A DNA stretch of 64,000 nt, the filler included, from Sanchytrium tribonematis (Eukaryota): assembly GCA_018985235.1 (NCBI GenBank). It is 12 parts of 12 records of this genome, joined end to end, with 100 filler letters (N's around TTAATTAATTAA, not from the genome) between each part and the next. Parts side by side here need not be neighbours in the genome. Positions count along the whole stretch, not along the records: positions 30,447 to 34,130 come from JADGIG010000820.1; 11 more parts are not named here. One strand, written 5' to 3'. Shown in pieces: positions 1-34,130 of the stretch. The notes under the pieces are model-generated. The model saw only the letters and a program-made list of their open reading frames with translations. It had not been told where the DNA came from and did no database searches. A program made the translations under genes and the position numbers. Position 1 is the first letter of the stretch, and every line of letters begins with the position of its first letter.

Positions 1-3000
1 GTTTCCAGTAGGCTGTTAATTTAATTTTCCAATTGACGGAAAACACTCTACTAAAATAAAAAATTTATGCTTTCATGAAGATCCGCGGTTTCGAAATGAA
101 TGGAGTTCCAAAGATCTGGTAAACTATGCATCCATCTTCACATTTGACATTTTTTGACAATAGAACTGTCGGTTTTATTTCCACTATGACAAATTCAGTG
201 ACTAACTTAATCAGAGTACATCCAAACAACTCACAATATTCTCAAACCAAATACTTGCGTTTTAATAGTTTTTGGTGCGTATGAAATCTAGTTTATAATT
301 CATCTACATAGGTATTCTTCTTATGTGGGTTTAAATGATTAATCGTATTTTTAAATCTGTACATTTTACTGCTAATTATTTTAAATTGACTATTGCGTGG
401 CAAGGCAGCAATTGATCTATACATGGCCATGTAGTATCTGGTATTTCTTCTTCAATGGTGTACTGGTCAATAAAATCAATTTCCATTTTATTTCTAATGA
501 TTTTCTTCGAGTATTTGGTCATTGTCTGGTTCAATATTGATTTGATTTGCTTACAGTATTTGTTTGCAGTGTTGACTATGCTATGCATTCCATCATCTTG
601 GTCCATGGAGAGCATTGTATTAAGAGTTGTCTGGAAAGCAGGAGAATTCTTATATTTTTTAAAACAATCTGCATATTCTTCTTTGATTTCATCTGTGATA
701 ATGTTTGGAGTGTACCATCTATTCCATTTGTTGAGTTGGATCACTTATGCTTCTGTTGATATCTCCGTGAAAATAGCCAGATGATCACTGATTAATGGTC
801 CAATTTGAGTAGGCCCAATTTTATGAGCAATGGACTCATTCAACATAAATCCTAGTCGTGTTATGGGATCTTCCACATCATAGTCATTAATTATGCAGCC
901 GAGATCCGTGTAAACATTATTTATAAATTCCATTCATTATTATTTCTAATTTGGACCATGCCACAATTATAGTCACCAATCATAAAGAATTTATTAGATG
1001 ATGCACGTCTTTTACATTTCAATAAATCATTATAAAACACAGTTTTATCAATACTATTTGTCTTATGTAAAAATACAATGAAATAATCACAAAATTGCAC
1101 AAATAGAATAACTGGTGATTCAAGCAATACTATTGGTTTATAACTGGATAACATTGGATGAATATATAGTGCCATTCCCAGTTGGGTGGGCTCTGTTTTA
1201 TTTGTGACATAATTCATATTCTTAAACTTGGAGTGGAATTTTGAGAGTCTGGCCTCTGCATATCCCAATATATGGATGTTGTTGGATGTTATGAAGTTCA
1301 TAATGGCTGTATTTTTGTTGTGTGACATTCCGTTTATATTTGGTGAATTTGACGTATTTCTTGATCCACCACTGGCTTTTCCAGTCCACCAAATCACGTC
1401 TAGCGGAGCAGGAACATAGTCGGATTCTAAAAATAAACCATGACTTAATTTTAATGGATATTTGAAGAAACCATCATGATCATAATATTCCCGGAGACCA
1501 TTGGGGTTACGGATTTCTAATTTATACATGTTGTTGGTACTGTCGTGGAAACCGGAGTCAATTTGGTATGTATTAAATGGAATTGGGAAATGTTCTGGAT
1601 CGACAAATGTCATGGAATTTTTGATGAGTATTTGTGCATTAAAAGAATGTGCTGGTTGTAAATCTTTTAATTTTGTGTTTGATTTTAAATTACACTGTTG
1701 TTTGTGGTCAGTATATTGAATTGTGATAATTTGTGGGGATTTACCAGGATCTGGTAGGATGCTTTTCCGGTCCAATTCTGGACCGCTTTCTCAGTGGTTG
1801 GACTCTTTTACAACACTACTGAATGATTTGGGAGGTGTATCACTGGCTTTATCATCAATTTCTGTGATCTTGTCTGTGATTGGCTGATTTTCAATTTTGA
1901 TTTTTTCATTATTTGGGACATCCCCAGTAGATTGAGTGAGTACATTGGGTTCTTTAATCTCTGCTACTTGTGTGATAAAATTAAATCTGCAACATCGTTA
2001 ATTATTGTGACTTTGGAGAACACAGAATCATCTGATAGAAAGCCATCATGCTCATCAATAATGACTAGTGGTCCATTTTCAATAATTTTTGGTAATTTAA
2101 TCTGCTTATTAATCAATCTATTTGCAATTGTGTTGTATTTTGTTGAAATTTCATGATACTCCATTTCATAGAAGAATTTATGTCTTAAATTACACAACGA
2201 ATGTATTTACATAAACCACGTTCTCCTTGAACAAATTGATCAAAAAGGGGTAAATTACCAGTGGCTTTATGCTTGACTTGTAAATATCCATGCATTAACG
2301 ATACGTAAATGGACTTAATATGCTCCAAACCCCAAACCCCATTTATGTTGCTATCAGGATTATCACTTTGAATTAAATGCTTTAAATACGTATTTCTGGC
2401 AACAAATTGAATTTCACAGTCAATTAAATATGCGATATTCTCGAATATTTCTTTAATTTGTTTGAATACAACTCTCTTTTCTGACATTTTACATTTAAAA
2501 ATAATTTCAAGAGCGTTTAATTTGTGCACAAAGCTGAAATTCTTAAAGATGGCTTTAAATTCTGTAGAGTTAAACTTTCCAAATTTCTGAATCAATTGTT
2601 TTAGCTTATTGTACTTTAATTCTTTGTTCTTTTGCAATCCTTTAATGTATACGAATTGGAATTGTGGATATTCTGTTGCATTATTTAGAATTGCTGATTT
2701 GTTTTCTCCATTTTCTTGCTGTTGAATGCTATTTAATTTCAGTTCATTTAGAAATGCCTGTAGATCTGGATCAATATTGAATTCTTGAATCAAATTCTGC
2801 TTTTTGTCGTCACCAGCGATAATAGGGGCTTCCTGAGCATCGCTTATTGGCTGTGATAATTTTTCTGGCAAAGTCATTTCAGCATCACTTTTTGAATCAG
2901 TTTTGGTTGCGTTACCATTGGAATTATGATTTGATTGTTGCGGTTTTTTATCGATTTTCATTTTGTTATTTTCTTCTTCTTTTTTTGTTTTTTCCTGGAA

Positions 3001-8465: not shown

Positions 8466-9663
8466 TCATCTTCTGAAAATATCGTCGTAATACTCTATAT
8501 AATAAGTAACCAATATACCAACCCAGCCGTCAGATTTAGATTGTGACACCATCTGATTCGTATCTACAAATTTACATAGGTTGGGAGCCCAAATAATTAA
8601 TAGATTGCTAGTGCTCATCAAATTTTCTTCCTTGTTAAAATTAATTTGCCTTAACAAGTGAAATAAAATTTTTGTGACTACATAAGATGGGTATGGCATT
8701 TCCACTGTTTGGCGTTTGACAAGTTTAAATAAAGCGTCATCTTTTTCAGTAAGATTGACAACCTTGTGATTCTCGGCATAATCACTCAACAGAATAAACC
8801 ATTCTTTAACCCACAATCCCTCCGGTATCTCTCTAATAAATGACTTTAAAGAAGCTGCAGCAATGTGGACTGCTTCATCAATGGTTCTTTTCGGTAGTTG
8901 AGTCAAAAAATCTTCCATCAGAAAATCCAAAATAAACCCTAAGTTAATTTATGTAACCTTGATCTAAGAGTGCCTGAACTTGTTTAACATGTTTAGTGTG
9001 TGGAGACTTTCTGAAAATACCTTTGACAAGAGTGCCTTTTTCAATAAGAAACAAAAAGAGATTGCTCAGTGGTTCTGGAATTAAGCTCAGTAGTTCTGAT
9101 ATATCAAAATAGTCCTTTCCTCCGTCGTATTTAACCAGATCAATTAATTCTTTTTTGTATAGAACTCCGTGTATCTGGTAGTTCGGGTCTATGGTAGAAT
9201 TAAATGCTATAATTTTTTCGTCCGATAGTACATATTGAGGTACAATATCCTTCAACTCCGATAAATTTGAACAGATTCTGACTTTCTTTTTGAATTTCGG
9301 AGAAGTCATCTTGTAAATTGCAGAAAGCGCATATTGGATGATGGTAGGCGGATGAACAATTAAAACTTGTTTGATATTTTTTCTAATTTCCCTTGAAGAC
9401 TGGCTGTAAATAGAATGACCGAATGATATCATTGAGAGCACATTGAATTCCGAGGGCTGATAAAATATCAATATACTATACGGCTCCTCGCATATAAGTT
9501 TAATTTTGTCCATAACAAGGTCGATAACTTCTTGATTAGGAGTGCCATTTGGTACCAAGTGAAAAGTAATCACCAAACAGGGTCGCTTTTCTTGATCGAC
9601 TGCAAACGCACAAAAGGATGTATTTATGGAAGTAGTAGATAGCCTGGAATCGCTTTGAGACAT
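8466..9663 (-). CDS. BCH/CRAL-TRIO plus RhoGAP protein (p50RhoGAP/ARHGAP1-like); 2 exons, intron 8939-8957
   Basis: RKNIKQVLIVHP (BCH), GIFRKS, LKSFIREIPE and NLMSTSNLLIIWAPNL (RhoGAP); removing the 19-nt intron joins the two ORFs. Confidence 0.85.
8939..8957 (-). other. 19-nt GT-AG intron gttacataaattaacttag
   Basis: Restores RhoGAP frame LDQG|FILDF. Confidence 0.85.
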
Positions 9664-12402: not shown

Positions 12403-13339
12403 ATGACTCCCGATGATTTAGAAGTTTGTATTTCGACTCTTATGAACTGTCAACTACTAAAAGAGACTCAAGTCAAATTTCTTTGCGAGAAGGCAAGAGA
12501 AATATTGGTTGAGGAGAGCAATGTTCAGCCAGTTAAAGCTCCGGTAACAATCTGCGGTGACATTCACGGACAATTGCATGATTTGTTAGAGCTTTTCAAA
12601 ATTGGTGGAGTGGTACCAGATACTAACTACTTATTTATGGGTGACTATGTGGACAGAGGTTATTATTCAGTTGAAACGGTGTCGTTATTGGTTTGCTTGA
12701 AAGTTCGATATCCTCATCGTATTACTATACTTAGAGGAAATCATGAAAGTAGGCAAATTACTCAAGTTTATGGATTTTATGACGAATGTCTTAGAAAATA
12801 CGGAAACGCTAATGTTTGGAAATTTTTTACTGATCTTTTTGATTATTTACCACTCACTGCATTAGTGGAAGACCAAATCTTTTGTTTACATGGTGGTCTA
12901 TCGCCTTCAATTGATTTGTTAGATCACATCAAGTCTTTGGATAGAATTCAAGAAATTCCACATGAGGGACCTATGTAAAACTCTTTAATTTAGGTGTGAT
13001 TTACTTTGGAGTGATCCTGATGAAAGATGTGGATGGGGGATATCCCCTCGAGGAGCTGGTTATACATTTGGCCAAGACATAAGTGAAGCTTTCAATCACA
13101 ATAATAATTTAACATTAGTAGCTCGAGCTCATCAACTTGTGATGGAGGGATATGCATGGGCTCATGATCGCAATGTTGTTACAATATTTTCTGCTCCCAA
13201 TTACTGTTACAGATGTGGCAACCAAGCAGCAATTATGGAATTTGATGAAAAAATGAAGTACGAATTCCTTCAATTTGATCCTGCTCCACGAAAAGGGGAA
13301 CCTCAAGTTACCCGCCGTACACCAGATTACTTTTTATAA
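12403..13339 (+). CDS. PPH21: PP2A catalytic subunit; 2 exons, intron 12975-12993
   Basis: [29 protein letters not shown] after splicing, [11 protein letters not shown] and C-terminal TPDYFL. Confidence 0.95.
12975..12993 (+). other. 19-nt GT-AG intron gtaaaactctttaatttag
   Basis: Restores conserved [13 protein letters not shown]. Confidence 0.95.
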
Positions 13340-13368
13340 ATAAATCCTATCATTGAAAATCTAAAGGG

Positions 13369-16300
13369 ATGACACAGGCAACTTTTGACCGGCCTATCGA
13401 TGTTCAAAGTCTCATCGAAACAAAACTGAATGTCACTGTTGATATGGACTTGGCATTTCATTTAAAGGAAAAAATATTGTATATGGATGGAGGTATGGGT
13501 ACAATGATTCAAGAATACAAGTTGGAGGAGAATGACTATAGAGGGGAATTATTAAAAAATCATGACTCGGATTTAAAAGGCAACAATGACATTTTGTCAA
13601 TTACACGTCCAGAAATTATTAAAGAAATTCACCTGAAATACCTTCAGTTTAGTGATATCATAGAGACAAACACATTTAGCAGCACCCAAACTGCACAGGC
13701 CGATTACAACTGTCAGCATCTTGCATATGAGCTTAATTTTAAGTCGGCTTTAATCGCAAAGGAGTGTTGTATACAGACAATGAATGAGATTATGGAGCCA
13801 AGATGGGTTGCTGGTTCTCTCGGCCCAACAAACAGAACTTTGAGCATAAGTCCGAGCGTCGAAAATCCTGCTTATAGAAACATTACATTTATGGAGCTTG
13901 TTGATGTTTATAAAGAGCAAGTTAAAGGACTGATTGCAGGAGGTGTGGATCTCTTATTGGTTGAAACCATATTTGACACTCTCAATGCAAAAGCTGCAAT
14001 ATACGCAATTAAAGATCTAGAAGAGCTTCGAGAGATACCAAAACTCCCGTTATTTATAAGCGGCACCATTACTGATCAAAGTGGCAGAACACTAAGTGGT
14101 CAAACAGGTGAAGCTTTCGTGATATCCATGGATCATGGCGATCCTTTAGCTATCGGATTAAATTGTGCATTGGGTGCCGATCTCATGAAACCTTTTATGT
14201 CGAATATTTCCACTTTCACTCGACATTTCACTCTTTGCTACCCAAACGCTGGATTGCCCAATACATTTGGCGAATATGATGAGACTCCGGATTCTATGGC
14301 TGCCCAAATAGTAGAATTCGTCAAAGACGGGCTTGTGAACATCATTGGTGGCTGTTGTGGGACTACTCCAGCACATATACAAGCAATCAGAAATGCCACC
14401 AAAGACTATAAACCTAGATTGAAGCCCTCAACCGATCACACTCAGAATTATTTCTGTTTAAGTGGATTAGAACCAATGATACAGCTTGAAAACATTAGAT
14501 TTATCAACATCGGGGAAAGATGTAATGTCAGTGGAAGTCGAAAATTCGCAAGATTAATCAGAAATAATGAATTTGAAGACGCTTTAACTATAGCTCGAGC
14601 TCAAATAGAGAATGGAGCTCAAATTATTGATATAAATGTAGACGATGGTATGATTGATGGTGAAACAACAATGCGAAAATTCTGTAATTTGATTATCCCT
14701 GAACCGGATTGCTCTAAAGTTCCAATTATGGTGGATTCAAGCAACTTTGCAGTGATAAGGAATGGATTGGAATGTTTGCAGGGAAAGTGCATTGTCAATA
14801 GCATTTCTCTTAAGGAAGGAGAAGTAGACTTTCTTAAAAAGGCACGGGAGATTAAAAAATTTGGAGCTGCTGTTGTTGTGATGGCATTTGACGAAAATGG
14901 CCAGGCGGCAGATTGTGATGAAAAAGTTCGCATTTGCTGTCGCAGTTATGAATTACTTGTAGGAATAGGTTTTAATCCAAAGGATATCGTATTTGATCCA
15001 AATATACTGACAATTTGCACCGGTATGTCTGAGCATGACAACTACGCCGTTGAATTTATCAATGCTGCAAAAATTATACGGGAAAAATGTCCAGGATGTG
15101 GGATTAGTGGTGGTGTCAGTAACGTTTCCTTTAGCTTTAGAGGAAAAGAAGTTATAAGAGAAGCAATGCATTCTGTATTTTTATATCATGCCATCAAAAA
15201 TGGCTTATCAATGGGAATCGTAAATAGTGGTTTCTTGACTGTTTACGATGAAATCGATAAACATTTATTAAAACTATGTGAGAATGCCATACACAACGCT
15301 GATCCGGATGTGACAGAAAAACTTCTGACTTTTGCTGAAAATACTTCAGGCAAAGTTGCCCAAGTCAATGTACAAGAATGGCGGTCTCTTGCTGTAGAAG
15401 AAAGACTAAAGCACGCACTAGTGAAAGGAATTGCTGACTTTGTGGAAGTGGATGTTGAAGAGGCTCGTCAATCTTATGAAAGGCCTCTCCATATAATCGA
15501 AGGCCCCCTAATGAGTGGAATGCAAGTAGTTGGTGATTTTTTTGGGCAGGGCAAAATGTTTTTGCCACAGGTAATCAAAAGCGCAAGGGTTATGAAAAGA
15601 GCTGTGGCGTACTTGATACCATTCATGGAAGAAGAAAGGTTATCCAGTTTAGAAGACACTTCTGGAGATATGTATAACGGTACTGTGGTTATAGCAACGG
15701 TTAAAGGAGATGTTCATGATATTGGAAAAAATATTGTCGCAGTGGTTCTTGGCTGCAACAATTTTAGAGTAATAGATTTAGGAGTCATGTGCCCTTGCAA
15801 AACCATTTTAGAAAAAGCGGTTGAAGTAAAGGCAGACGTAATTGGACTATCAGGTCTTATTACTCCCAGTTTAGATGAAATGATTTCTGTTGCAAGAGAA
15901 ATGGAAAAAAGGGAATTAAAGTTTCCTTTGCTCATAGGTGGCGCTACGACGAGCAAAATGCACACTGCTGTTAAAATTTCCCCAAAATATTCACAACCAG
16001 TTGTCCATGTGCTGGATGCCTCCAGAAGCGTGGTAGTAGTTAACAACTTGATTGATGAAAATAGAAAGCTCGATTATATGGAAGATCTGAATGAAGAATA
16101 TGATGAACTGCGAACCGAGCATTATGAAGGACTCCTAGAGCGTAAATTCTTGTCTTTAGAGCAATGTCGAGGGAAAAAAGGAATATATAATCACATTATT
16201 TGTAAGCCTGCTTCAATTGGTGTTTTCTCCATAAAAGATTTTGATTTGAGTAGGTTAGTGGATAAGATTGACTGGAATCCATTTTTCGTCATTTGGCAAC

Positions 16301-17156
16301 TTCGTGGCAAGTATCCCAATAGAGGCTATCCAAAAATTTTTAATGACCCGGATGTAGGAGAAGAGGCCGTTAAATTATTCAACGATGCTAACAATCTAAT
16401 TAAGGAGATTATAGCCAAAAAATTAATGGTTGCAAACGGAGTTTTTGGAATTTTTCCTGCAAAACAATCTGGAGATGATATTTCAGTGTATGATGCTTCA
16501 TTTGAAAAAGTAGAGGCCGTTTTACACGGTCTTAGACAACAAGCAGAACATGAAATAGACGAGTATCTTTGTCTTAGTGACTTTATATCTCCATCCGAAA
16601 AAGATTACATTGGCATGTTTGCTGTGGGAATATTTGGAGCCGAGGAGCTTTCAGATATGTATGAAAAAAAACATCTCGACGACTACAATTCTATCATGAC
16701 CAAGGCCGTAGCTGATCGATTAGCTGAGGCATTTGCCGAAGTTTTACATGAGGATGTTCGTAAGAAGCACTGGGGATATGCAAGTGATGAAGATTTTGAT
16801 TCAAAGGAACTCCTGAGCATATCGTATTCAGGCATTCGACCGGCTCCAGGTATTTAATTTTAACAAAGGATATCCATCACAGCCGGATCACACTGAAAAA
16901 TTAACGATATGGAAATTATTAAATTGCGAAGAAAATTGCGGGGTAACTTTAACTGAGTCATTGGCGATGAATCCGGCAGCCTCAGTTTCTGGGCTTTATT
17001 TTGCAAATCGAGAATCTAAATATTTCGCAGTGGGTAAGATTTCGAAAGACCAGGTTCAAGATTATGCAAAGCGCAAGGATATGAAGATTGAAGATGTGGA
17101 GAGATGGCTTTCGCCTATTCTTTCATACGGTAGCATTCATTCACGTAGAAATATAA
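13369..17156 (+). CDS. metH: Cobalamin-dependent methionine synthase (MetH/MTR); introns 16850-16868 and 17130-17148
   Basis: [30 protein letters not shown] (B12 ligand), [12 protein letters not shown] and [11 protein letters not shown]. Confidence 0.95.
16850..16868 (+). other. 19-nt GT-AG intron gtatttaattttaacaaag
   Basis: Restores conserved [17 protein letters not shown]. Confidence 0.95.
17130..17148 (+). other. 19-nt GT-AG intron gtagcattcattcacgtag
   Basis: Gives a normal short MetH end (LSPILSYEI*) and removes the overlap with SET1; fits the intron consensus. Confidence 0.75.
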
Positions 17157-17207
17157 TTTTTATCAATTTTGTTCTGGTAATAAATTGTGGCAATTTTTCA
17201 AGAAACA

Positions 17208-19020
17208 ATGGAGAAATCTCTTAAGTCGGCGTTTCCCTTGACCAAGGATATGATCGAGTCAGAGTTACCATGCAAAGTTCGTGAATTTGACGGAACATTT
17301 GCGATTATTGAGGAATCAAAACCAAGTTTGAAAGATGGACATTTCAGTTTTTCAAATGATGTGCCTAGCATAATTGAACCAGCTAAACGGCGACCTTTAA
17401 ACAAGATCGAGGAAGGTTATACGATAACTTTTAATAAAGAAAATGCTACTCCCCTAACAGAGATCGAAGGGAACGTCACTTTGGGACTAACAATGCCTGA
17501 TGTATATCCGTTCTTGCATATTAAAGGACTCAGCGACTTCACCAAAATTACTGGTCATAAGACTATCGGCTACAACGAGTGCGTGGTTACAGGGCTTTCA
17601 GTCAAAGATATGGAGAAACTGCGAAGTTCAATTTACAAGGATGTGAAGGATGCCTCAGGATCAATAGAATTGTTCATTTCGCCTCGTCCGACATCGCCTG
17701 AAAATCTAGAACGATTTAATCCAAAGGAATTTTTTGTCAAAAAATTACGAGACAGAATAGAAGAGGATGTATGGAAATTGGTCGATAAAATATACGAAAA
17801 AAACTTCTCCAGAAATGAGTCGAACAATCTTGAATTAAGCTCTGCTAATTTTGATCCGATAAAGCTGGAACAAGTATTTAATAATTCCTCAAGTAAAAAG
17901 AAAACTAAGAGATCGGTTGTCGAAATTTTCGAGACATCCGGAAGCTCTGATGGTGCTTTTATAGCAGAACTTGACAGTCAAATTTTAGCGCTTCATCCAA
18001 AAAAGGTGAAAAAAGTTAAAAAGAAAGTCGCTTCGAAGGCAAAAAAATCTGAGAAAGAAAAGTTAAAAAAATCTCTGCATCATATCAGCCTTCTTGATAG
18101 ATCATCAGATCTAAAATTGTATGATTTCGACGATATTGTAGCTAAAGATTTTGTTAATTTTGATTACGTTTGCCCTAGAAGGTCTGGTGATTTTGTGGAA
18201 AACAGACTTGGAATGGACGAAGAAGATCGTCTTGCTTATTCTTTTGCACTAAATCCTAAATTTGACTTGACAGATGAAGAAAAGTACAATTTTAAAATAG
18301 TTCTTATGGAAGCGGGTGAATGTCAGAGGGAATTGCCGCATCGCACCATAGATTATGAAGAAAAGGTTCGCTACCTTCCACAGAGAGCCAAATACAGACT
18401 AGAATTGCCGCATTTACCTTCTGTTGATCCTAAAAAAGTTGCCGATTTAAGTGACACAAGGGCGTCTTTAAGAGCAGCCAGAGCAGAGCAACGAAGGCTG
18501 GAAAGAGATTTAGAAAAAACACGTGCTGAGGAAAGCGAAGCATTCAAGTTTAATCAGCTTAAAGTTAGAAAGAAAAAACTATTGTTTGCCAAGTCCTTCA
18601 TTCACTCATGGGGCCTTTTTGCCAGAGAGGTAATACCAAAAGGTGAAATGGTTATTGAGTATGTTGGAGAAGTCGTAAGGGCGAAAATTTCGGATTTTAG
18701 AGAACAAGTATACGCATTAGAAGGTATGCACTCGAGCTATTTTTTTAGAATCGATGAAGATCTTGTCATTGACGCTACCTATGTAGGAAATTTTGCTAGA
18801 TTTATTAATCATTGGTAATCTCTATTCATGCAGCTGTGACCCAAATTGCTATGCGAAAACAATAACAGTTGATGGAAAAAAGAAAGTTGTTATATACGCA
18901 GGTAGGGATATTAAGGTAAGTGAAGAAATTACCTACGATTACAAATTTCCAGAGGAAGACATTAGTCTGAAAGTCAAGTGCTTTTGCGGAGCCAGAACAT
19001 GCAGGGGTTCATTGAATTAA
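17208..19020 (+). CDS. SET1: Set1-like H3K4 methyltransferase; intron 18815-18833
   Basis: [58 protein letters not shown] and post-[16 protein letters not shown]. Confidence 0.9.
18815..18833 (+). other. 19-nt GT-AG intron gtaatctctattcatgcag
   Basis: Restores SET motif RFINHCCDPNC. Confidence 0.95.
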
Positions 19021-30446: not shown

Positions 30447-30920
30447 TGAATTGCATTTGGTTTGATTCACTCCAGTCCAAACCAATTTATTATCAACTTC
30501 TCTTATTTTGACTACATTTTCCACTTTTAACAAGTCAATAAACTCTTCATTATATAATTCTAAAAAGGATACTTGTATATTTGGATTTTCTAGTTTGTTT
30601 GATTCTGTGAATATCCATTTTAATGCATTTGGAAGCAACCCATTCGGATAATTAATATCTGTGCCCAAAGTATATGTTTTCCCACTTCCTGTTTGTCCAT
30701 AACATAATAATGTGCAATTATATCCTTGGATAAACTGATTTAAGAGTGGTAAACACGCGTCATTAAAAACATCTTCATTTTCAGTCTGACTTGGATAAAC
30801 AGAGTCAAATGTAAAGGGTCTATTGCCTAATAAGACACAATTTTCTTTAAATAAACTCACACATTCTGTATCTGTAGATGGTTTTATTCTCAATTTGACA
30901 TTTACAGAATTTTGATTCAT
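30447..30920 (-). CDS. Kinesin motor domain N-terminal fragment (kinesin-4-like)
   Basis: FTFDSV, GYNCTLLCYGQTGSGKTYT and VSFLELYNEEFIDLL. Confidence 0.88.
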
Positions 30921-30974
30921 TTTATAATGTTTGAAAATCAAAAAAGCCACATATTGAATAGTGTATTTATTGTA

Positions 30975-31202
30975 TTAGAAATCATAGACTCTTCCTTTTC
31001 TTTCCCAGTCATTATATCTAGTGGGTTCAGGTCCTTTAGGTCCATTAAATTCTTCTTCCATTTTGGATGTTTTTGGTGATTTGGATGGATGTGTAGGTGT
31101 AGTATAGATATTTTCAGATGATTTGGACTGATTTAATGCATTATTAGTGGTTGTTTTTGATTTAGAGGCATTTCGAAGTACTCGAGTGATTTGACCAAAC
31201 AT
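30975..31202 (-). CDS. SDHAF4: Succinate dehydrogenase assembly factor 4 (Sdh8/DUF1674)
   Basis: GPKGPEPTRYNDWERKGRVYDF C-terminus; presequence-like N-terminus. Confidence 0.9.
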   Translation of the reverse strand: MFGQITRVLRNASKSKTTTNNALNQSKSSENIYTTPTHPSKSPKTSKMEEEFNGPKGPEPTRYNDWERKGRVYDF

Positions 31203-31304
31203 GGGGAATTCTCAAATTTGATTTAAATGCCATTAATCTTTCCAATTGAGTTTATTAGAATTTATAACTCAATGAATGACTGCATAATACTCTGTAATCC
31301 ATTG

Positions 31305-33078
31305 CAGAGATCGGAAAAAATTAATTTAATTTCAAATTAATTGCAATTAATTAATTGAAATTGGTAATTGGAAAAGGCTAGTAATTGACCAATTAGTAAT
31401 AAAATGCTTCATATCCTTTGAATTCCACTTTTATTTGGATTATACAGGTTTCTGTAAGATTTTTACTCAATTCGACAATTTTTCTAACAGAATATGAACT
31501 CCAAATTGTCCCAAAAAGAAGTGGCACAATTTTACTTTGACTTTAGCAATTCAGAAAACAAAAGTCACAAGTGCAAGTGCGTTACTAGCATCACAATGCC
31601 AAAGAATGGTGGATACACCAACTATTTTAATCATGTTAGATTAAAACACAAAGATTATATTAGCGAGGTTACATCTGTAAGATCTTTTAGTCAGAAAAAA
31701 CTGTGTACAGATAGTTCTATTAATACATATAAATGGATACGCTGGATTCTTGAGGAAAATGTTCCTTTTACTTTTGTAGATTCCAAATGGACCCGGATGA
31801 ATAGCAATTTGAAAGCAATAAGTAGCAAAACTGTAACTGAATATATGAAAAAAATGGTTCCAATGGTAGAACAAAAAATAGCAGATTCTTTGCCAGAGAA
31901 AATTGGAATTATGTTTGATTCTTGGAAATCATTTGGTTCCAACTATGTTGGCATTTTTGCAATATTGTTAAATAAACAAGAACCGGTCTTAATCTCCCTC
32001 TCTGTGCTAGAAAATGAGGAGTCTCAAAATGCAGCCGAATTTAAAAAAAAATTAGAGACAATTTTACCACTTTTTGGTAAACAAATGAAAGATGTTTTGT
32101 TTTATGTATTAGACAATTGTTCCACCAATCAATCTATGAGTAATCTTTCTCATAAACCAATGATTGGATGTTATTCACATCGATTAAATTTAGCTGTAAG
32201 AAGATACATGATGAAGCACGAAACATTATTTGAGAGGGTACTACTTCTTTATTTAGTTAAATAACTTAATGAAAAAATTAAAAACATCAACTTTCTCTGC
32301 CTGGTTACGATCTGCAATGGGTGAAGGAAACAATTTAGTGGCAATTACAAGAAGTGAAACAAGATGGGATCAAGATTTTGCGATGCTTGATAGATATTTC
32401 CTTATCAATTGATTAACAAGTATCCAAATGATTTTGAGCATCACTTGTCAATTGATGCAGAAATAATTAAGCATAAATCATTTGAAAATGCAATAGTCAA
32501 AGTAATTGATGGCGAAGAAAATATACTAACTAAAATTGAAAAACTGGCTGTTAAGGGCTTTATGACTAACTCAAATTTTGATGAAGAATTTGTTACTGAT
32601 ACTGAATTAAATGAAGAATCGGATTGGACTGCTAAAATCCTTGAAACTCATGCTAGAAAAAGAAAAAAATTAAATAGCAAGTATGTAGATTTGAGCAACA
32701 TCAATCCAACATCAAATAGATGTGAAAGATTGTTTAGTCAGGTCCGGCATATATTTACCAGTGTTAGAAATCGTTTGTCTCCAATAATGTTGGAAAATGC
32801 TGTATTTTTAAAATACAACACTAGTTATTGGGATGTTTCCATTGTTCAAGCAGTGGAAAGAAACGAATTGGCAAGTGAAGTGGACAAAGACTGCGACATT
32901 ATTTCTGAATCATTGATCTAGTGCCAGAATATGAATAAATTGCGTACAAAAAATATTTTGATTGCAATTCAATTAATGCCAATTAATTGCAATTAATTAA
33001 TTGATTAATTAATTGATTAATTAATTGGAAGCGATTTAGGGCACTAATTTAATTGCAATTAAATTTTTCCGATCCCTG
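31305..33078 (+). mobile_element. hAT DNA transposon with TIRs and 8-bp TSD; internally deleted transposase with intron 32238-32256
   Basis: TSD atccattg at 31297-31304 and 33079-33086; TIRs CAGAGATCGGAAAAA / CAGGGATCGGAAAAA; FDSW, DNCSTN, CYSHRLNL, TRW and PTSNRCERLFS. Confidence 0.95.
32238..32256 (+). other. 19-nt GT-AG intron gtactacttctttatttag
   Basis: Continues the transposase as FER|LNNLMKKLKT...SETRW. Confidence 0.8.
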
Positions 33079-33130
33079 ATCCATTGTACATTGGTGTCAC
33101 TTTTGCAACCAATAGAATTTCATTGTTGCA

Positions 33131-33887
33131 ATGGCATTACTGGGTGATTGTGAAATATTATACAAGTATTATAATGAGGAATATTTCGAAAGTCAATTAG
33201 ATGTCAATGTGACTCCCATTTCATCTGATTTCATCGATGATATCGCTGGAAGAATCACATGGCGTAGCCCTGTAAATCAAGATGAAGAAAACCAAAATCC
33301 AAATGTTGATCGACGCATCGAAAATAAAAGAGGATTTGGTGAAGACATTAAATTGCCATGACGGAATCAGATTTTCAAATTTTTTTGATTCACAAATTAA
33401 TGACCCATTTGATAGATTTAATCTAGAAAGTGATTCTGTATTGAGATTGTCACCAGGATTAGAACAAAAAGAAGGTGGAGTCCCCCAAAGATTAAAATTT
33501 GTACAACCAAGTGGATCCAGTGGACCAATAAGACCCAGTCCAAGTGGACCAAGTGGCATGCCAGCAACAGCAACAGCTAGAACACCACTTGGACAGATTA
33601 CTGGACAGGTTGATTCAAGTAATCCTGTGAGAAACAAAAGAAAGAGTGGAAGTGATGATGAAGAGAGTGACAATGACAGTGACAGCGATGATGATATTGG
33701 TCGTCATCCTCAATCAAAGCGACCTAAAGGAAATTCACAGCCTACAGGGAATTCACCGCCAATTATGGAGAATCATTTTACCTTTTATATTGGGGGCGAT
33801 AAAGTAACTGCTACGGGACAAGAAACCCCACCTCATGTTAAATCAAGTTTCCCTGATGAAAAGTCTGCTGTTGCAGCCGCCGCATAA
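33131..33887 (+). pseudogene. Low-complexity (S/G/P, acidic) ORF with a frameshift near 33358, next to the hAT
   Basis: Overlapping ORFs 33131-33361 and 33282-33887; no fitting 19-nt intron found. Confidence 0.35.
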
Positions 33888-33898
33888 AATCAATAAAA

Positions 33899-34130
33899 TC
33901 ATTTGCGATTTATTTCTGCTGTAGAAACCACGACGCTGCTGCCATGCTCATATAGCGGATTAAATGATTCTTTAGCCAGTGATTGATACAGTGGATTCTC
34001 ATTGATTTCTGCACTCAAGAATTCCTTTCGCCATTGCGCATCAAATCGTTTGTATAACACTTTGGAATAAACCAGCCAGGCTATTAATCCACCTGCAATC
34101 ATCATAATCATACTACATTTTGCCAAAGAA
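33899..34130 (-). CDS. C-terminus of a type I membrane protein with an integrin-beta-like dual NPxY tail (5' truncated)
   Basis: TM-like MIMMIAGGLIAWLVY followed by ENPLYQSLAKESFNPLYE. Confidence 0.7.

Follow-up and report, generated by a model that had tools for sequence, protein, structure and literature searches.

An integrin-beta-like tail in Sanchytrium tribonematis points to a family of candidate lectin-headed, talin-coupled receptors in aphelids and blastoclad fungi

Our analysis of a 64,000-nucleotide stretch of Sanchytrium tribonematis DNA (hereafter the window) identifies the last coding exon of a single-pass receptor, which by its membrane-plus-tail region belongs to a family of receptors shared by aphelids and blastoclad fungi and which, as far as the sequences of its relatives can tell, is not an integrin. 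We favour, at a probability of roughly 0.55, a reading that sees it as a lectin-headed adhesion receptor working like Dictyostelium SibA, with the first of two NPLY motifs in its tail binding talin. Basal fungi encode talin, vinculin and paxillin, yet no integrin, and in the fungal literature we found no receptor named for the talin-actin link. In this family, the 'yet-unidentified integrin functional homologue' of basal fungi gains a concrete candidate, which, being present in Allomyces and Blastocladiella, is also a named and testable one within culturable fungi; for the chytrids proper, where we found no member, it leaves the question unsettled. If the reading is true, the talin-binding tail would be an old, swappable module that animals and amoebae combine with VWA heads and the fungal branch with a lectin head.

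The window is made up of eukaryotic contigs joined by N spacers (overall GC 0.347), and the receptor exon sits at the right edge of the contig that occupies 30447-34130. A minus-strand open frame runs from 34129 to 33899 and closes with a stop codon at 33901-33899. Within it, the last coding exon (33899..34112, minus strand), recognised by its open frame, its relatives and silent differences between copies, encodes the end of a membrane helix, a cytoplasmic tail and the stop. The visible C-terminal part of the membrane helix (34067..34111, minus strand) is a hydrophobic run with a Kyte-Doolittle 15-residue mean of 2.1 and aligns with the full membrane helices of relatives. It is followed on the same strand by a charged membrane-proximal segment (33998..34066) that is predicted to continue the helix and bears conserved F, W and E residues at positions -16, -12 and -9 relative to the first NPLY. 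Next come this membrane-proximal NPLY itself (33986..33997, minus strand), a predicted talin-FERM site going by the roles described for integrin and SibA (PMC12686525, PMC4325847), and, eight residues downstream, the membrane-distal NPLY (33950..33961, minus strand) with a conserved Glu at -3, C-terminal of which 16 residues precede the stop. By chance, 0.005 NPx[YF]-8-NPx[YF] pairs would be expected per 64 kb, against 25 single motifs (Markov simulations, 200 runs). Frame and hydropathy thus confirm what the first-pass annotation had seen here, namely a hydrophobic transmembrane stretch, a charged stretch and two NPLY motifs eight residues apart, and it was also right that the ectodomain is missing at the contig break, since the contig stops at 34130. 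Its span of 33899..34130 contains the frame as described, but its initial six residues probably come from reading into an intron, and the membrane helix is only partly visible.

This correction follows from the introns. Judged from its sequence, the organism in the window has GT-AG introns that are very short and of one length, 19 nt: this length accounts for nine of 57 frame-joining candidates, any other from 12 to 60 for no more than four, and the intron motif occurs 47 times at 19 nt against 33.7 +/- 5.1 expected, which is the sole z above 2 among 27 lengths. Introns of this kind lie on the plus strand at 12975-12993, 16850-16868, 18815-18833, 32238-32256 and 38633-38651, and on the minus strand with starts at 8957, 19711 and 21979. 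Excising them restores motifs that we take to be those of PP2A, methionine synthase and a SET protein, and on the receptor contig, too, excision of a 19-nt intron lengthens a frame. One gene split in this way, at 13357-17221 (plus strand), looks to us like a cobalamin-dependent methionine synthase. At the contig end, 34113..34130 (minus strand) begins with T, ends with TAG and fits a 19-nt intron without its first G; it is probably the 3' 18 nt of such an intron, cut by the contig end, which is why we regard the first six residues of the frame as a probable intron remnant. The TAG end, the 19-nt pattern and the point at which a variant copy (see below) diverges make 34112 the most likely start of the receptor exon. 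By eye, the loose end of that copy holds a 19-nt GT-AG stretch whose excision continues the hydrophobic helix in register with the relative P0005. Nucleomorph introns have this size, and none of the literature matches listed described 19-nt introns in fungi.

Membership in the receptor family is based on the membrane-plus-tail region. While a word-based search gave three relatives among 35 candidates (57-62% identity), HMMER returned 20 matches at E<=0.001, of which 18 were membrane-plus-tail relatives, and a profile search added Blastocladiella emersonii and Allomyces macrogynus (eight family rows among ten matches). Cluster look-ups put names to further members, namely Amoeboaphelidium protococcarum KAI3632783.1, Catenaria ORZ35457.1 and Paraphysoderma KAI9137795.1, the latter clustering with the full-length P0017. 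Dropped from the family were P0007 and P0024, whose cystatin repeats mark them as HMMER artefacts, and P0035/P0036, which are NPLY-repeat proteins without a membrane helix. In a tally of 25 family proteins, which includes near-duplicates and stems from a set collected by likeness to the tail, the membrane helix, the 8-residue NPxY spacing and F(-16) are found in all 25, and W(-12), an acidic residue at -9 and the Glu at -3 of the second motif in 24 each. The window matches every one of the family positions, that is, membrane helix, F(-16), W(-12), E(-9) and NPL[YF]-5-E-2-NPL[YF]. A tree of 66 columns places it inside a 24-row clade with the named relatives (96/86) and separates it from VWA and Sib-like tails; the subclade nearest to it comprises eight rows, all of them ectodomain-free gene calls that start at or just before the membrane helix. 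Our searches found no family member in Chytridiomycota or gut fungi, which also have talin, an absence that is weak since these searches were word-limited. The ESM Atlas gave no match at 0.9 or above for the window fragment or for P0013. Family proteins are already in databases, under head-only or hypothetical names: NCBI calls the Allomyces and Catenaria members 'fibro-slime domain-containing protein' or 'PA14 domain-containing protein', so that the head alone is named, and the tail and a talin link are absent from the names returned. We found no description of a PA14-Ig-NPLY receptor family in the full-text literature, a body of text largely separate from subscription journals.

In the tail, the likeness to integrin beta (PF08725) consists in a membrane helix that runs into a charged helix and then into NPxY-8-NPxY. 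A profile of 20 membrane-plus-tail segments matched 21 PDB sequences at E<=10 and the top ten are integrin beta chains, led by beta1 (E 2.1e-5) together with beta7, beta3 and beta2. This match spans the charged helix as well as the NPxY motifs, and in the integrin beta1 membrane-proximal helix the positions opposite the family W and E are taken by the second Phe and the Glu that follows it. When the Pfam model Integrin_b_cyt was run on the window, as the first-pass annotation had proposed, it stayed below its gathering score (11.5 bits vs a cut-off of 23.4), with 22.3 bits for the best full-length relative and matches at E<=1 for 18 of 20 aligned tails. Unlike integrin beta, the family alignment lacks the alpha-contacting HDR(K/R)E motif, replaces the Trp ahead of the first NPxY by an aliphatic residue, shortens the linker by two residues and has a Glu where integrins have Ser/Thr (a Thr pair) before the second motif; outside the membrane, relatives are without VWA/MIDAS, PSI and a cysteine-rich stalk, their stalk being cadherin/Ig-like instead. 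In integrins, the Trp before the first NPxY functions in talin binding. Kindlin, named earlier alongside talin as a binder of such tails, is unlikely to be a partner here, since it is described as found in animals only (PMC4325847); hence the second NPLY needs another one.

As for the ectodomain, the VWA and EGF domains that had been expected did not turn up. In 13 relatives the stretch N-terminal of the membrane helix is about 100 residues long or longer, and none of these has a VWA, EGF, integrin or Ig_SibA match in Pfam. Instead, 11 of them match Big_9, Cadherin_4 or PA14, and the remaining two have PA14 exons upstream in their loci. Complete members run from a hydrophobic N-terminal segment (judged by eye to be a signal peptide) through a fibro-slime head and two Ig domains (many more in P0018) to the membrane helix and tail, and their ectodomains contain 2-5 Cys in members of 497-603 aa and 15 in the 1258-aa member. 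TIGR02148 (Fibro_Slime) scores above cut-off in eight of 11 proteins scanned (82-100 bits vs a cut-off of 45), the three misses being fragments without the head; Pfam PA14 does so in P0018 only. The P0013 model (mean pLDDT 73.5) has two confident Ig domains matching cadherin folds and one continuous helix (460-504) that passes through and beyond the membrane. In a second model, of low confidence (mean pLDDT 63.6), just two of the best 50 fold matches cover the head, and we take both to be PA14 lectins: Cea1A, with Z 8.4 over 139 aligned residues at rmsd 3.6, and 6qe7, with Z 8.2 over 122 at rmsd 3.8. Foldseek with both models listed Ig/cadherin and glycosidase rows and no PA14 entry among them, and a full-length sequence search of the PDB gave no PA14 match. 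While the low confidence of the model, the middling fold matches and the Foldseek rows speak against a lectin head, a G-D-D-D motif is invariant in all 11 aligned heads (near-duplicates included), and PA14 lectins are described as binding sugar via an Asp-cis-Asp calcium site (PMC8092209). From this motif we infer that the family head may be a calcium-dependent lectin. In head family, Asp-Asp motif and the Cea1A fold match it resembles both the PA14/Flo5-type adhesins (Cea1A, MpPA14) and the fibro-slime proteins of Fibrobacter (TIGR02148), which have been proposed to bind cellulose (PMC4668043). Yeast PA14 adhesins, in contrast, are described as GPI-anchored wall proteins (PMC6218569) and have no cytoplasmic tail, whereas the family head is joined to an integrin-like one.

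With Dictyostelium SibA-E the family shares a single membrane helix and two NPxY motifs. SibA is reported to couple talin to the membrane via such a two-NPxY tail, with no integrin alpha partner known in that account (PMC12686525). Sib combines a VWA head with Ig_SibA, whereas in the family the head is of the fibro-slime/PA14 type and Ig_SibA finds no match; Sib-like tails differ in turn by having Pro in place of the F-W-E helix pattern. Bacterial-adhesin-like Ig repeats occur in both, with Big_9/Cadherin_4 found in family relatives and in two Sib-like metagenome loci (L004/L068). GxxxG in the membrane helix, a Sib feature, is seen in 14 of 25 family rows and not within the visible part of the window's helix. 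Outside integrins, a 2023 review cites only Dictyostelium for tails of this type (PMC10846614), and another source reports Sib from dictyostelids only (10.1101/2020.04.29.069435). Our pattern scan of metagenomes yielded at least 119 loci, some 30 of which (by our own count) have a strongly hydrophobic stretch upstream. Among 26 chosen loci scanned with Pfam, five have VWA and two have Ig_SibA plus Cadherin_4; four loci are members of the fungal family. Since the same tail appears on several ectodomains among these scanned loci, it is a shared module, and because the Sib-like metagenome proteins share both this module and the Cadherin_4 stalk domains, a Sib-like mode of action becomes plausible for the family.

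Several of these loci merit description in their own right. L004:1-6060 (plus strand) and L068:25-6087 (minus strand) encode proteins of more than 2000 aa with Ig_SibA, Cadherin_4 and an NPLY-5-E-2-NPLY tail on contigs of about 50% GC; with L093, placed in this group solely by its tail, they may represent relatives of Sib beyond the dictyostelids. L006, L021, L023, L027 and L071 are protist-like, integrin-beta-type receptors with VWA and the same tail; most of them carry Dictyostelium CTDC repeats, and one carries TSP1 repeats. Within the family clade, L003:1-6141 (plus strand) encodes a receptor of more than 2000 aa with at least 13 Big_9 repeats, membrane helix and tail, next to an ORF that is presumably GMC-oxidoreductase-like. 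In L012, L013, L016, L019, L052, L115 and L116, NPLY-5-E-2-NPLY is sometimes repeated and has no membrane helix before it; several of these look bacterial (RHS repeats, carboxypeptidase-regulatory or FG-GAP domains), and it is possible that they mimic a host motif.

On the talin-receptor reading that we prefer, the conserved Asp-Asp pair would hold a calcium through which the head grips surface glycans in the manner of PA14 adhesins (PMC8092209), the Ig stalk would keep the head away from the membrane, and the first NPLY plus the membrane-proximal helix would dock onto the FERM head of talin and thereby connect to actin, like SibA without an alpha subunit (PMC12686525). Such a receptor may help zoospores to crawl, or to settle on a substrate or host. 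Talin is proposed as partner of the first NPLY by analogy, and one survey reports it from four of five zoosporic fungi, with Allomyces among the five and, by the wording, not the exception (10.1101/2020.06.12.142943). Several points weigh against this reading: the window's ectodomain lies beyond the contig end and its nearest subclade consists entirely of helix-start gene calls, the Trp is replaced, the linker is shorter, and Integrin_b_cyt stays below cut-off. NPxY motifs also serve endocytic and sorting adaptors, which counts against it as well, as does our failure to find a member in the talin-bearing chytrids and gut fungi. More tentatively, and at somewhat less than even odds, a scenario may be envisaged in which early fungi and aphelids retained a talin-coupling tail of the integrin-beta type, to which they added a bacterial-style PA14 lectin head and a cadherin-like stalk. 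The product, a receptor standing in for the missing integrin, would give amoeboid zoospores a means to pull on algal walls and other sugar-coated surfaces; in this fast-evolving lineage it would have multiplied.

The alternative that survives best, albeit one we hold to be unlikely, accepts the family but sees the tandem NPLY as uptake or recycling signals for other PTB/FERM proteins (sorting nexins, MyTH4-FERM myosin), so that the protein would be a receptor that captures or senses sugars and not one that bears force in adhesion. PTB/FERM domains generally take NPxY as a ligand, and both the loss of the canonical Trp and the short stalk of two domains would suit such a role. Furthermore, MyTH-FERM myosins have been reported in zoosporic fungi (10.1101/2020.06.12.142943). 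Against this alternative, the likeness to integrin beta goes beyond the motifs to include the membrane-proximal helix, and the same tail module is carried by integrin-like and Sib-like adhesins. Endocytic motifs, moreover, are of the FxNPxY type, which the second motif in the alignment is not.

Extrapolating from its relatives, the gene in the window probably has the same PA14/Ig ectodomain. The opposite view, which we consider rather improbable, is that its subclade lost or swapped the lectin ectodomain and that what is left is a short membrane adaptor or a receptor with some other head. It can draw on the fact that an ectodomain is seen in none of the eight rows of this subclade, several of which have long Ser/Gly/Thr-rich tail extensions, and that the tail module occurs on many ectodomains. 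However, gene calls in intron-bearing DNA begin at exon edges (L029, L034, L075, L089) and three of these loci (L029, L034, L075) carry PA14 exons upstream; in the window, too, a probable intron cuts the frame, and the variant copy from run X1 continues for 779 nt.

That a fungus retained a true integrin beta or a Sib with a VWA head is far less credible than either of these: the beta1 match of the tail profile and the widespread Integrin_b_cyt matches would favour it, but VWA, EGF and Ig_SibA are matched by none of the relatives, and the clade of the window includes no VWA or Sib-like tails. Of the integrin- or Sib-like receptor put forward in the first-pass annotation there remain the single membrane pass and the tail, which the PDB profile likens to integrin beta, whereas the integrin VWA/EGF head has no counterpart in the relatives. 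That the frame arose by chance, is a dead copy or lies on a contig of some other organism, as the contig edge, the repeated segment and a nearby transposase-like gene might suggest, is just as implausible given the chance rate for the motif pair, relatives at 57-62% identity, copy differences that are silent throughout and a 19-nt intron style common to the receptor contig and others.

The receptor exon is under coding constraint. Its variant copy in run X1, which may be the window's own source so that the copy is no independent support, shows five differences in 230 letters, all five at silent third positions (chance about 0.001). A convergent low-complexity ORF (33276..33887, plus strand), which is repeated together with the receptor exon, served as control: four of 34 listed differences are silent (17 more lie outside the listing), the copies also differ by indels of 1, 2, 4 and 9 letters, and we see no sign of coding constraint and no Pfam match. 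Run X1 contains variant copies of segment 33083-34119, in which both this ORF and the last receptor exon lie, and these copies probably explain the contig break; the variant exon copy diverges from 34119 on, and extending the contig with run X1 led only to a 30-letter loose end that stems from it. Depth of the variant contig (282) compared with X1 contigs identical to the window (47-57) hints at several copies of the receptor exon, with the proviso that depth does not equal copy number. Loose ends of X1 at 33004-33083 mark a repeat boundary just past the transposase-like gene (31488-32921, plus strand), which carries a 19-nt intron and has no corresponding Pfam match; judging by its motifs, we take it to be of the hAT type. 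Searched with full-length relatives (tblastn), the window returned the same receptor exon only and no other gene piece, and among 405 pattern matches obtained with a close-relative alignment, none was confirmed as a related locus.

To place the organism we used DNA polymerase epsilon, which is encoded on the next contig. Against it, 41 of 46 chosen references (fungi and an aphelid) score 684-745 bits and the five animal and plant rows 523-661. The polymerase sits on a very long branch. FastTree placed it with Neoconidiobolus, a site-heterogeneous C20 tree put it beside Blastocladiomycota with a support of 31, and the AU test did not reject a placement outside Holomycota (p 0.448). We read the organism as an early fungus that evolves fast. 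Sanchytrids would be a fit, as their zoospores crawl, their GC is 35-36% and they are described as a long-branched sister group to Blastocladiomycota (PMC8371127). Elsewhere in the window, 44352-45467 (minus strand) encodes a fragment of a leucine-rich-repeat protein with a possible membrane region, perhaps another surface receptor.
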